From the sequence record PP925832.1: DNA of 38,253 bases; one strand, 5' to 3'. Position numbers and translations under genes: made by a program. The notes beneath the pieces are model-generated. The model saw nothing but the letters and a program-made list of their open reading frames with translations. It was not told the origin of the DNA and searched no databases. Positions 17,970-21,134 of this stretch are shown here, piece after piece. Each line of letters starts with the position of its first letter. Within the stretch, counting starts at the first letter, position 1. Origin of the DNA: Escherichia phage Fostie.

Positions 17970-18310
17970 TACGTGCTCCAGTGAGACGCAGGATCGAGCG
18001 GGTAGCCGTTGGCATCACAGCCTATTACCGCGCCGCTCTTCTCCATTCTCTGTTTCGTTGAATCGTGATGCGCTTTGCACAGTGGCTGCCAGTTCTCTTT
18101 ACTCCAGAACAGGAGCTGTGCTTTCGATATGGCCAGCGGGTTACCTGACTTAAGCGCATCTTTGAGTTTGTGGGGCTCGATATGGTCAACCACCGTTGCC
18201 GGGGTAATGCGCCCCTGCTGCTCGCACATCACACATAGTGGGTGCTGCTGCAGGAAACGCAGACGGGCCTTATCCCATCGGCTGCCATATACGCGGGGCT
18301 CTTTGTTCAT
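17969..18310 (-). CDS. HNH endonuclease (terminase-associated)
   Basis: Cys/His motif CVMCEQ...VDHIEPHK...CKAHHD; likely start ATG at 18310 (MNKEP) overlapping upstream stop as ATGA; track ORF extends to 18322. Confidence 0.75.
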   Translation of the reverse strand: MNKEPRVYGSRWDKARLRFLQQHPLCVMCEQQGRITPATVVDHIEPHKLKDALKSGNPLAISKAQLLFWSKENWQPLCKAHHDSTKQRMEKSGAVIGCDANGYPLDPASHWST

Positions 18311-18882
18311 GCCAGTCTCCATGCGCGGCGGCGTTCCGTCCTCGGCTCGTTGTCAGGGTGACGCTCAACCGTCGGGAGGTCAGCGTGATCCACCAGCGAG
18401 TAACACGGATAAATCACCCGGCCACCGAATGCCTCACCGACGGCGTAATCAGCTGCCAGCGTTTTATTCCATGCGTTAAGCATGCGCGCCAGCCTGCCCT
18501 GAGGAGGGCTGTAACATACGCCATGAATCAGTTTGCTAAGAACAAGGTAATCAGCGTTTACTCTGTCTGCTTCCACCAGCATTCCAGCAATCTCTTTCTG
18601 ATACTGTGGCGGTCGACCGGTACCGAGATAAAAGCTCAGCATGTCGTCAGGAAAGCGGGTCAGCCAGTCGACCACCAGCTCGGCAAACCAAGGAACGGGC
18701 ATCGCGTCGTCTTCCAGCACCACTACCCGGCATGGTTGGCTGGCAGCCCACTCAAGCGCGCGTCGATGATTCCAGTTAGCGCCGTGGTTACCGTCATCAA
18801 TCAGCAGATGAGCATCCAGCAGCGCGGCAAGTCGTTGCGCATGACCTTTGCGAGAGTGATGGCCAACCACAACAAACTTCAC
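18307..18882 (-). CDS. Glycosyltransferase-like protein (GT-A fold suspected)
   Basis: About 191 aa with VVVLEDDAMP acidic motif; GTG start overlaps upstream stop as GTGA; no signal peptide or TM segment. Confidence 0.4.
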   Translation of the reverse strand: MKFVVVGHHSRKGHAQRLAALLDAHLLIDDGNHGANWNHRRALEWAASQPCRVVVLEDDAMPVPWFAELVVDWLTRFPDDMLSFYLGTGRPPQYQKEIAGMLVEADRVNADYLVLSKLIHGVCYSPPQGRLARMLNAWNKTLAADYAVGEAFGGRVIYPCYSLVDHADLPTVERHPDNEPRTERRRAWRLA

Positions 18883-20336
18883 TTGTGTTTCCACCAGGCG
18901 ACCTCCTTACCGATACCATCAGTTTTGAAAACGGTATGTACCCGAGGGCCGGTGACCAGCCTGTCAGCGAATGACTGCGCGACAATACCGAACGCCAGCA
19001 TGTCACCCACCGCGGCGCCAACCTGTTCTTTCTTCCAGAAACGATAACTCTCGATCCGGTAGTAAAGACGGATGATGCCGTGAGCGAACGCCATTACATC
19101 AGCGCGGGTGCCACCCAGCAGACCAGCGTTAAGCATCACATCGCCGCGGTGCGCTTCAATGAATTCCTGATAGATACGCTCAGGATGATTCTGTTTCGCC
19201 CAGGTGTCGGCGTATGTCTTCGGTTCAGAACCGACGTAAACATTCCCGGGCTGCATTTCTTCCCACGGCGCGCGAAGCATTTCGACATCGGTGCCATCAG
19301 TACACCAGACGAACCGGTATTCAGGATGATCTCGCAGGTGCTGCCAGATGTGCAGCCAGCGCCGGAAATAGACATTCATCTTTACGTCAGGTACGAGATA
19401 CAGCTCAACATCTGCCGGGGCCGTCAGTAATTCATCCACCAGCGCAATACGCCCACAATTCCGAAGCGAGGCCGCCCACTTGGTCAGCATGTCAGGCGAG
19501 GCCGTCATTTTCGTGCCGCGCTGAGGGTCAGGCTGGCTGGTCAGTAACGTAGTGATAACCACGTCGCGCTGACGCCGATATTCAACATAACCGGTAAAGC
19601 CGGTATCACGTCGTTCATTGTGGATCTTCACATTACGTTCCACCAGCGCCTGGCGGTCGGGCCTCGGTACCGAACGCTCCACCGCTTCATGCTCATCGAG
19701 GGAATGAATCAGCTTGTCTGAACCGAGGACATCAGCGTAAGCCCACGTAGTCAGTCCAGCGTTGTGGATGCGCAAGGCGAGGTCGCTGTGTTCGTACATG
19801 CCGCGACCATAAACCGGATCGAATCCGCCCACCCTCTCGATGGCGCTACGGTGGTAATACAGCATCACGCCGCGCTGTCCGGTGTACGCCACATGCTGAT
19901 CGTCACGGTAAAGCAACGAAAGGTCATTCAGCTTATTGCGACCAGCCAGATCGAGAAACTGGTAAGCCAGGTGTGGCTCGGGTGATTCGATGTAGGGAAG
20001 ATGCCAGTTGTCGGCGATGGGCCAGGCATCATCATCCCACAGAAAAAGATGCTCGCACCCGGCATCCATCAGGGCTGACAGGCTGGCGTTCTTCGAAGCA
20101 ACAATGCCGAGTGAAGTTTCATGGCGAAGCAGCTGCACGCCGTGGGGAACTACCGCTGCAGGTTTTGAACCATCATCGACTACCACCACCAGCGCGCCGG
20201 CGGGAAGATGCTTCATGTGCTGTTCGAGTGCTCGCTTTAAAACGTCTGCGCGCTGATGTGTTGAAATGGCAATGCCGATCCGTGAAGAAACGACGCTGGC
20301 TGGAGCGAATGGGACACCATCAATAGTGACCTGCAT
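18879..20336 (-). CDS. Two-domain glycosyltransferase (N-terminal GT2-like)
   Basis: 485 aa; N-terminus has GT2 signatures VVVVDDGS and LFLWDDDAWP; C-terminal region has a second acidic DGTD motif; strong SD GGAGG before ATG at 20336. Confidence 0.6.
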   Translation of the reverse strand: MQVTIDGVPFAPASVVSSRIGIAISTHQRADVLKRALEQHMKHLPAGALVVVVDDGSKPAAVVPHGVQLLRHETSLGIVASKNASLSALMDAGCEHLFLWDDDAWPIADNWHLPYIESPEPHLAYQFLDLAGRNKLNDLSLLYRDDQHVAYTGQRGVMLYYHRSAIERVGGFDPVYGRGMYEHSDLALRIHNAGLTTWAYADVLGSDKLIHSLDEHEAVERSVPRPDRQALVERNVKIHNERRDTGFTGYVEYRRQRDVVITTLLTSQPDPQRGTKMTASPDMLTKWAASLRNCGRIALVDELLTAPADVELYLVPDVKMNVYFRRWLHIWQHLRDHPEYRFVWCTDGTDVEMLRAPWEEMQPGNVYVGSEPKTYADTWAKQNHPERIYQEFIEAHRGDVMLNAGLLGGTRADVMAFAHGIIRLYYRIESYRFWKKEQVGAAVGDMLAFGIVAQSFADRLVTGPRVHTVFKTDGIGKEVAWWKHK

Positions 20337-20351
20337 ATGTCCTCCGGCCTT

Positions 20352-21134
20352 TTAACGCTTAGTGGCGGCGTGAATGATTCCACCAGGACGTGTGGCTTCG
20401 CGTAAAGCTTCGCTCACTCTCTCCGAAATGAAACGATTTAAGCAGCTTTCTTCGTTATTAACAGGTTGGATGACTGATTGTTTGATATGTACAACACCGG
20501 CCACTACATAGAATGGCGATGATTCAGCCAGAGCCTTTGCGTCTGCTTTCTCCTTCCTTTTCCGCTTGATGTATTCCACGGCATCACGCATTTCGTCTGG
20601 TGTGTAGGCTCCTTCAATAGCTACCCAGCGATCAGCCAAAAAAACCACCGCTGTTTTATCTGCTGGAAATCCGGCAAATACCTCATTGAACCTCTGCTTT
20701 GCTTCATCAAGAGCATTAGCAATCTTTTGTTGGATGGCTATGTCGTTACTGATTTTGTAGCGGGGAAGATCTGCAATTCCATCCAGCTCATCAATAGGGC
20801 TCTCGATGAAACCACCTGTGAAATGTACTGGTAGGCTGTCCCATGACGTTGGCACTCCGTTATCATCCACTCGCAGTGCCACTAATTTATAACCGTCTGG
20901 CACCATGATTTTTTGAGAGCGTTTGAATGGTGAATCTGTGTAGCCAGTAAAGGTGATGGCCCCAACGTTGAAGCCCTCAAAGATAGTCCCGGAGTGCCAG
21001 TCAGGTTTAACGGCATAAAGATGCACACGGCATTTATCACCATGCTCAATCCGGTTCCCGGCGCCGTCGGTGGTGATGGTTCCTAAAGAAGGAAGCGTTA
21101 CTGTTACTTCACAAACTTGATATGTCTGAGACAT
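20352..21134 (-). CDS. Hypothetical protein, first gene of the glycosyltransferase cassette
   Basis: 260 aa from ATG at 21134 (MSQTYQ) with SD AAGGA; no recognisable motif; track ORF extends upstream to 21245. Confidence 0.45.
   Translation of the reverse strand: MSQTYQVCEVTVTLPSLGTITTDGAGNRIEHGDKCRVHLYAVKPDWHSGTIFEGFNVGAITFTGYTDSPFKRSQKIMVPDGYKLVALRVDDNGVPTSWDSLPVHFTGGFIESPIDELDGIADLPRYKISNDIAIQQKIANALDEAKQRFNEVFAGFPADKTAVVFLADRWVAIEGAYTPDEMRDAVEYIKRKRKEKADAKALAESSPFYVVAGVVHIKQSVIQPVNNEESCLNRFISERVSEALREATRPGGIIHAATKR

Follow-up and report, generated by a model that had tools for sequence, protein, structure and literature searches.

The DNA analyzed here is the genome record of Escherichia phage Fostie (PP925832.1), a stretch of 38,253 nucleotides that we call the window. 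Between its lysis genes and a gene for an HNH endonuclease lie three open reading frames (ORFs), which a first-pass annotation had described as a three-gene glycosyltransferase cassette. All three were found on the minus strand where that annotation had placed them, and the motifs quoted from them are present, with VVVVDDGS, LFLWDDDAWP, and CTDGTDVE in the 485-amino-acid (aa) protein and VVVLEDDAMP in the small glycosyltransferase (GT). Our analysis retains two of the three genes, GT485 and GT195, as a pair of soluble GTs that probably constitutes a virion-glycosylation module homologous to that of mycobacteriophages. The third, ORF1, is of another kind. The three genes are as follows.

20352..21134, minus strand: ORF1, 260 aa, related to gpJ, the central tail fiber protein
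18879..20336, minus strand: GT485, 485 aa, a soluble glycosyltransferase modeled as a tandem GT-A enzyme
18307..18894 (or from a start at 18882), minus strand: GT195, 195 or 191 aa, a small GT25-like GT-A glycosyltransferase

The large enzyme, GT485, matches the family phrog_1579 ("glycosyltransferase") with an E value of 2e-252. Its own score against Pfam GT2 stays below the cut-off (17 versus 23.3 bits), but its relatives do pass for both GT2 and Glyco_transf_7C. An AlphaFold2 (AF2) model, built on an alignment of 89 diverse homologues, reached a mean pLDDT of 95.7, and the top PDB matches to it in Foldseek were the two-domain GT-A enzymes PmHS2, K4CP, and ColGalT1 (probability 1.0). These whole-protein matches cover about 490 to 500 columns; single-domain matches include GalNAc-T2 and alpha-1,3-GalT. 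The N-domain is of the GT2/Glyco_transf_7C-like type and carries DDGS at residues 54 to 57, DDD at 101 to 103, and EH at 182 and 183. In the family profile, VVVDDaS aligns to ADDGS of K4CP and FLfDDD to FLDADD of TagF, an alignment that puts the predicted acidic motifs on the canonical nucleotide-sugar and DXD sites of solved GT2 enzymes, in keeping with what had been claimed for them. The C-domain (about residues 255 to 485) is Rossmann-like in the AF2 model and strongly conserved at DPQRG (270 to 274), DxTD (D347xxD350), E371, and N403, and this conservation suggests a catalytic role for D347 and D350. The two-domain architecture is retained across 248 representative clusters of the family (E<1e-30).

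In its model, GT485 shares tandem GT-A domains, with aligned DDGS and DXD motifs in the N-domain, with PmHS2, K4CP, and the human bifunctional GT-A enzymes ColGalT1 and LH3. It differs from PmHS2, K4CP, and ColGalT1 in sequence (identity of about 11%), in domain orientation (giving an rmsd of 12 to 15 A), and in being shorter. Polymerization of the kind carried out by PmHS2 and K4CP is not evidenced for GT485, and its C-domain has no relative among Pfam families or PDB sequences, profile search included. Giant-virus multidomain GTs also appear among its structural matches in BFVD. The PBCV-1 proteins A064R and A111/114R and the Megavirinae GT clusters resemble the system proposed here in being virus-encoded, cytoplasmic, multidomain GT-A enzymes that glycosylate the virus's own major capsid protein, but they belong to eukaryotic viruses, make atypical N-linked glycans at other acceptor sites, and have no sequence-level relationship to the phage proteins.

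The GT485 family also has members of other build and in other settings. Several (P0380, P0466, P0480, P0492, and P0501), 590 to 960 aa long, carry an extra N-terminal GT domain (GT2/7C or GT25) ahead of the GT485-type two-domain unit, which makes three GT domains in a single chain; P0380 and P0466, examined as candidate fusions of GT195 with GT485, were not similar to GT195. A full-length homologue that is 54.5% identical to GT485 is encoded at 255501-256955 in the 299-kb jumbo phage KpSz_1 (MN871448.1; Klebsiella/Serratia), and 14 Klebsiella or Serratia phage records match GT485 in all, so the family extends beyond temperate siphophages. Chromosomal homologues with about 42% identity occur in Micromonospora and Dactylosporangium (loci L224, L226-L230, and L237-L240), where they have no GT195 neighbor, adjoin ORFs of 1100 to 1700 aa, and lie in surroundings that do not look prophage-like. 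Such a setting points to a cellular branch of the family in actinobacteria, acting on a different substrate.

The small enzyme, GT195, matches phrog_854 ("glucosyltransferase") with an E value of 1e-71. Alignment with distant relatives gives as family invariants E61-D62-D63-A64, N42-H43, SxYLG at 87 to 91, SLVDHxD at 166 to 172, and R189/W192, and 30 columns are invariant across the enterobacterial and mycobacterial host groups. Pfam GT25 (PF01755) was reached by 3 of 14 family members, with a best E value of 1.2e-7, but not by the window protein. The family has a weak PDB match to Mimivirus R655, and hhalign of GT195 against the GT25 domain of the fusion protein P0492 gave a probability of 32%. 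When the window proteins themselves were searched against Pfam and NCBIfam, GT485 had only the sub-threshold GT2 match and GT195 had none, and PDB sequence searches returned nothing meaningful. GT195 has in common with the GT25 family (the Lic2A/LgtB beta-galactosyltransferases of lipooligosaccharide [LOS] and the collagen hydroxylysine galactosyltransferase) the LEDDA motif and a small GT-A core, and one GT25 enzyme, ColGalT1, is able to glycosylate a protein hydroxyl. In contrast to that family, GT195 is about 50 residues shorter than a typical GT25 domain and stays below all Pfam thresholds. Foldseek, profile, and family matches together bear out the description of both proteins as soluble GT-A enzymes with acidic motifs at their catalytic sites, and no transmembrane-like segment was found in either GT or in ORF1 (maximum Kyte-Doolittle value of 1.49 over 19-residue windows).

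The third gene belongs to a different family. ORF1 homologues carry names such as "phage tail tip fiber protein," "DUF1983," and "Fur-regulated protein," and ORF1 itself has a weak match to Pfam FNIII-A_GpJ. Its AF2 model (pLDDT of 70 overall and about 88 for residues 10 to 105) shows an N-terminal FNIII-like beta-sandwich followed by a helical/hairpin C-terminal part, and its best Foldseek matches are the tail-tip gpJ proteins of lambda and T1 (E = 5e-3). Both GTs occur without ORF1 in ENT39118, HK542, and ECP1, and a relative of ORF1 occurs without the GTs in a lambda-like prophage (L003/L004; L003 6001-7128), between the lysis genes and terminase. Judged by its relatives and its distribution, ORF1 is an independent, variable insert, neither a GT nor a part of the GT module, and the cassette of the first-pass annotation has to be reduced to two genes. 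A comparison of ORF1 with the window's own gpJ, made to see whether it is a piece of that protein, gave no significant similarity. Across the family, a conserved N-terminal beta-sandwich of 110 residues is followed by a variable middle with gpJ "Phage_Tail_Tip" fragments and a conserved C-terminal ...PGGxIW, and members lie between lysis and terminase genes in several prophage types, with or without GTs. They would be cytoplasmic, standalone gpJ-like proteins.

The two GT genes, by comparison, travel together. GT485-type and GT195-type genes are neighbors in 79 of 80 viral loci, with the gp110/GT195-type gene just downstream of GT485, and HNH follows downstream in 56 of the 80. Synteny, suggested earlier as a check on the cassette, supports a unit for the GT pair and not for ORF1, which comes and goes independently. 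In IMG/VR, both GTs are present in 61 of the 80 closest capsid relatives and both are absent from 10, so extra coding ahead of HNH, which had been taken as unusual, is the common arrangement in this lineage; HK97 and HK022 are in the minority without GTs. Both genes are strongly conserved and are found intact and at full length in thousands of genomes. Complete Escherichia coli genomes seldom carry the module (4 of 5,426), which is abundant in Enterobacter, Citrobacter, Klebsiella, Cronobacter, and their relatives.

Some loci depart from this pattern. In mEp390 (L001 3697-4209), an extra HNH gene, annotated as Corndog gp56-like, stands exactly between the two GT genes and looks like a homing-endonuclease insertion into the module. 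HK633 (L005 3007-3573; L125) keeps only the small GT, beside HNH, and has a tube protein of the 234-aa Ig-extended form described below; it looks like a module that recombination has left to decay. The same appearance is given by a prophage of a Pantoea symbiont (L225), in which GT485 is truncated and the head genes are fragmented.

The described system that the pair most resembles is that of mycobacteriophages, encoded by Che8 gp108-110 and the Corndog gp36-38 region. A translated search with GT485 of the GenBank phages returned 605 records, 568 of them Mycobacterium phages, mostly of cluster F. Identity to the mycobacteriophage GTs (Pacc40 gp98, Sparky gp88, and others) is 43 to 47% over all 485 residues, and GT195 matches Che8 gp110 (BLASTP, 34% over 192 aa, E = 2.6e-23) and Corndog gp38 (BLASTP, 33%, E = 2e-16). 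Gene order in Che8, Pacc40, and Sparky is as in the window, running from the GTs to HNH to the genome end, and terminase lies at the opposite end. A 2025 paper, with reference to Freeman et al. 2023 (Cell Host Microbe 31:1216), names Che8 gp110 and Corndog gp38 as the two essential glycosyltransferases for capsid glycosylation, and PMC12619734 places the mycobacteriophage glycans at the C-terminal ends of the capsid and tail-tube subunits. The earlier remark that this arrangement resembles nothing yet described is wrong: GT195 is homologous to Che8 gp110 and Corndog gp38, GT485 to the large GT of most cluster F phages, and the systems further agree in gene order, in soluble enzymes encoded beside late or structural genes, and in capsid and tube proteins that end in Gly-Ser. 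They differ in that the window phage is an HK97-like lambdoid of a Gram-negative host (Enterobacteriaceae) and in that Che8 has two other GTs, gp108 and gp109, where the window has GT485. The link with Ig-like tube domains and the variation between GS and TS, both described below, were observed here and do not come from the literature.

If the module is mycobacteriophage-like, the capsid and tube proteins should offer a similar C terminus, and a match to this prediction was found at the sequence level. Only three real genes of the window end in GS, and they are those of the capsid, the adaptor, and the tube.

12449..13606, minus strand: major capsid protein of the HK97 gp5 type, 385 aa, phrog_10, ending ...KGSFSSGS, with its Ser codon at 12452-12454
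10495..10947, minus strand: major tail (tube) protein, 150 aa, phrog_158, ending ...WGTAAGS
12089..12415, minus strand: head-tail adaptor (Ad1, HK97 gp6 type), phrog_40, ending ...SEPEEGS

The corresponding capsid and tube ends in the phages compared are listed below.

Window: capsid ...SSGS, tube ...AAGS
Che8: capsid ...KTGS, tube ...SDGS
Sparky: capsid ...GGGS, tube ...GGGS
Corndog: capsid ...LVGS, tube ...KGDS

We predict from these comparisons that the C-terminal Gly-Ser of the capsid and tube proteins is a glycan acceptor. In a comparison of several hundred related loci, a terminal -GS or -TS goes together with the GT pair on several capsid and tube families that are unrelated to one another, and relatives that lack the pair have -GA or -AD ends or an Ig-like domain instead. 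Among the HK97-like loci of the 80 closest capsid relatives, 54 of the 55 with the GTs encode a tube protein of 147 or 156 aa with a -GS end. In the 6 loci without GTs that have the same tube type, the tube is a 234-aa protein, the first 145 residues of which are 92% identical to the 147-aa form before continuing into an Ig-like extension; four more loci without GTs have HK022-type tails and no tube ORF ending in -GS (nominal Fisher p of 1e-7 with 0/6 to 6e-11 with 0/10). In loci L090-L169 the tube forms differ only at the end, with ...ESGS in one and continuation into the Ig-like domain in the other. The 147-aa and 234-aa proteins thus present a clean natural swap between a putative glycosylation tag and a protein decoration domain.

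All 61 relatives with the GTs keep -GS on the capsid, and capsids ending ...FSAD occur only in relatives without them. A 403-aa capsid family that is 40 to 47% identical to the window's has a terminal Ser in 46 of 47 loci with the GTs versus 2 of 11 loci without (p = 5e-8), the members without GTs mostly ending ...PAGA. The 80 nearest relatives of the window's tube protein all end in -GS or -TS, and both GTs are present in all 43 loci that could be resolved. In bacterial genomes, 48 loci with both GTs have GS/TS ends in 76 of 499 downstream versus 11 of 496 upstream ORFs (p = 4e-14), and the ORFs so tagged belong to different capsid families (phrog_10 and phrog_617) and tube families (phrog_158, 584, and 1407). 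The window's 150-aa tube type has no significant BLAST similarity to the 147/156-aa type.

The penultimate residue covaries within a phage (GS/TS, p = 5e-5), and a capsid ending ...QTS, for example, is accompanied by an adaptor ending ...EETS and a tube ending ...AATS. No single column of GT195 discriminates GS-type from TS-type phages; GT195 clusters are mostly of a single type, a pattern confounded by linkage. The adaptor, which ends ...EETS where capsid and tube end in -TS (L194 and L205), is a possible third acceptor, on weaker evidence, as its tail is also retained in HK97, which is without GTs. A portal protein ending ...ESGS lies near the GTs in a Rahnella locus (L208), and a 130-aa protein (phrog_35526) downstream of the tape measure gene at L175 18356-18748 ends ...MNGS. 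From these sequences, the acceptor set may be wider than capsid and tube.

The setting of the pair bears on when it would be expressed. The window looks like the complete, circularly permuted genome of an HK97-like (Hendrixvirinae) temperate phage, with its late genes on the minus strand. Read along that strand, they run from Q through two holins, a GH19 endolysin, spanins, a hairpin, ORF1, GT485, GT195, and HNH, and then through a 78-aa ORF, TerS, TerL, portal, protease, capsid, and connectors to the tail-tube protein. The features that matter here are the following.

33641-34651: integrase
23999-24781, minus strand: Q-like antiterminator, phrog_127 (E = 2e-101), upstream of the lysis genes
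21251..21270, minus strand: hairpin that resembles a terminator and has a T-run, located between the spanin genes and ORF1, with an 8-bp stem of which 6 pairs are G-C and the tail TTTTTAATG
17969..18322 (or 18310), minus strand: HNH endonuclease of the HK97 gp74 type, Pfam HNH, phrog_2323, overlapping the end of GT195

A promoter scan predicted no sigma-70-like promoter between Q and the terminase genes and found 0 in the interval 17500-23500, where 4.3 were expected. Because of this, the hairpin, and the upstream Q, late expression of the GTs, as had been proposed, and its dependence on Q may reasonably be inferred. Q would presumably drive late transcription across ORF1, the GTs, HNH, and the structural genes, and the Q-modified transcript would have to read through the hairpin at 21270..21251. 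Junctions along this stretch are compact. The spacer of 15 nucleotides (nt) between ORF1 and GT485 contains GGAGG, and an ATGA overlap of GT195 with HNH arises if HNH starts at 18310; a Shine-Dalgarno link and an ATGA overlap had been noted before, and both hold. The GTGA start given for a 191-aa GT195 is matched or bettered by GTG at 18894, where AAGGAGG precedes the codon by 7 nt and the resulting N terminus agrees with those of homologues (METQVKF / MVETQVKF). The 195-aa product, which would overlap GT485 by 16 nt, is at least as likely.

Elsewhere in the window, a TerB-like gene (23300-23725, minus strand; phrog_632, "tellurite resistance," E = 3e-64) stands between Q and the holins, another classic insert position. 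The gpJ gene reaches the left edge (window 1-3553), and genes for tail-fiber and membrane-associated proteins occupy the right edge (35571-38253).

Late-expressed O-glycosylation of virion proteins is the function that we consider most likely from these sequence comparisons, and it is the one to favor among the candidate roles given earlier; modification of DNA or of a host target has no such support. GT485 and GT195 would be made from the Q-dependent late transcript along with the structural proteins and would act in the cytoplasm on host nucleotide sugars. We propose GT195 as the initiating enzyme, which would add a first sugar to the hydroxyl of the C-terminal Ser of the capsid (...SSGS), the tube (...AAGS), and possibly the adaptor (...EEGS). 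GT485 is proposed to elongate the glycan, its two GT-A domains attaching further sugars. The outcome would be a glycan coat over head and tail, with the tube glycan located where relatives without GTs carry an Ig-like decoration domain. The comparisons themselves show the folds and motifs, the homology, the conserved gene order, the place in the late operon, and the association of the pair with the terminal Ser. Glycan attachment, the initiating enzyme, the order of action, the sugars used, and the biological benefit are what we infer in this scheme; by analogy with the mycobacteriophage work, the benefit could be shielding from antibodies or proteases, or surface adhesion.

Several points weigh against this interpretation. 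The enterobacterial case is built on sequences and models, and the division of labor in which GT195 initiates and GT485 extends is conjectural; the GT485 N-domain also resembles polypeptide GalNAc-transferases in Foldseek. BLAST detects no similarity of GT485 to Che8 gp108 or gp109. To our knowledge, its cluster F homologues have not been individually tested, and the exact acceptor residue in Che8 comes from secondary citations and from what the original abstract reportedly says. HK97, HK022, and others keep both capsid ...SSGS and adaptor ...EEGS despite having no GTs, so glycosylation does not follow from a -GS tail by itself. Only 5 to 9 kb separate the GT genes from the capsid and tube genes, and the loci share ancestry; independence is therefore overstated by the Fisher tests, and linkage may account for part of the association between tails and GTs. 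There are also exceptions, namely one locus with GTs and a 234-aa tube, one capsid ending in -GA with GTs, and two capsids ending in -GS without them. The argument instead draws its strength from the recurrence of the tail across unrelated protein families and two bacterial phyla.

Linkage can be taken further, to an explanation in which the -GS tails merely hitch-hike through the shared ancestry of head, tail, and GT modules, and the enzymes have another substrate or none, being part of a decaying module. The HK97 capsid with its -GS and no GTs fits such an account, as do the close relationship of the loci (capsids 94 to 100% identical), HK633 with GT195 only, and the symbiont prophage with its truncated GT485. 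It accords poorly with the strong conservation of both GTs as intact ORFs and with the return of the tail on sequence-unrelated tube families (the 150-aa versus the 147/156-aa type; phrog_584 and phrog_1407), on different capsid families, and in Che8, Sparky, and Corndog. Pure hitch-hiking is possible for the capsid tail and unlikely for the recurrent tube tails, and as an explanation of the whole we consider it improbable.

The enzymes might instead modify a host protein or a small molecule in the lytic phase, for takeover or anti-defense, and their link to virion C termini would then be coincidental. Late or lytic expression is compatible with this, and soluble GT-A enzymes that glycosylate host proteins do exist among bacterial toxins and effectors. 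PDB searches gave no similarity to toxin-type GTs, however, and a host target would have to be one that served a module conserved over hosts as far apart as Enterobacteriaceae and Mycobacterium. This explanation gives no account of -GS/-TS on unrelated capsid and tube families or of the loss of Ser in relatives without GTs, and we regard it as decidedly improbable.

Prophage GTs are usually read as agents of lysogenic conversion (PMC11332146), and here the soluble enzymes would modify lipopolysaccharide (LPS) core, O-antigen precursors, or another envelope glycan on the cytoplasmic side and so alter the receptors of the lysogen. LPS/LOS core transferases are found among the GT25 and GT2 families (Pfam GT25 description), and the PHROGs category of both proteins is "moron, auxiliary metabolic gene and host takeover." The seroconversion modules GtrA/GtrB/GtrC of P22, SfV, and SfX are likewise phage encoded and include a GT2-related enzyme, but the window GTs come without GtrA/GtrB-like membrane proteins or transmembrane segments and with a GT25-like partner. 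Gtr modules adjoin int/attP, whereas the window pair stands between spanins and HNH, with the integrase some 13 kb away; the earlier judgment that this is not a Gtr-type module was sound. Because the genes have no promoter and lie in the late operon downstream of Q, between lysis and HNH/terminase, expression in the lysogen is not expected. The same pair is present in over 560 records of mycobacteriophages, the hosts of which lack LPS, and the association with capsid and tube C termini would be left unexplained, all of which makes lysogenic conversion very unlikely.

Least plausible is glycosylation of a modified phage base against restriction, as in the T-even or TET-associated GT systems, for which the classical role of phage GTs in DNA modification and sub-threshold matches of distant homologues to the TET-associated family PF20691 (E = 4e-4 and 1e-2) could be cited, but those TAGT matches are confined to the generic DXD region, a PHROGs scan of the window ORFs found no hydroxymethylase, TET/5mYOX, methyltransferase, or other base route, the replication genes are an ordinary primase and helicase, and the mycobacteriophage homologues are linked to protein glycosylation.

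Neither the genes nor this kind of system is new in itself. Both GTs are already annotated as glycosyltransferase or glucosyltransferase in RefSeq phages, and what is unreported is the implication of virion glycosylation in enterobacterial phages. The mycobacteriophage study reportedly found virion glycosylation to be confined, in essence, to actinobacteriophages, and literature searches found no report of it in Hendrixvirinae or other enterobacterial phages. We also advance, more tentatively than the module itself, a broader proposal in three parts: that the gp110/GT195 family reads a C-terminal Gly-Ser or Thr-Ser as a short, portable glycosylation tag, that most HK97-like temperate phages infecting Enterobacter, Citrobacter, Klebsiella, Cronobacter, and their relatives have glycosylated virions, and that the tube glycan is an evolutionary alternative to the Ig-like domain.

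If virion glycosylation by this module is confirmed, a minimal terminal Gly-Ser tag and its enzyme pair could be used for cytoplasmic protein glyco-engineering, and should the tag prove portable, the result would be a two-gene, soluble, E. coli-compatible system for glycosylating the C terminus of any protein. The swap between Ig-like domain and tag at the tube C terminus would offer a concrete handle on the purpose of surface decorations, and the question could be tested in the most tractable phage-host system. There would be a bearing on antibody recognition in phage therapy, on behavior in mucus, and on how cryo-electron microscopy and mass spectrometry of model virions are read. Many temperate phages of gut and clinical Enterobacteriaceae, including the culturable K-12 phages mEp390 and HK542, would then be glycan-coated.

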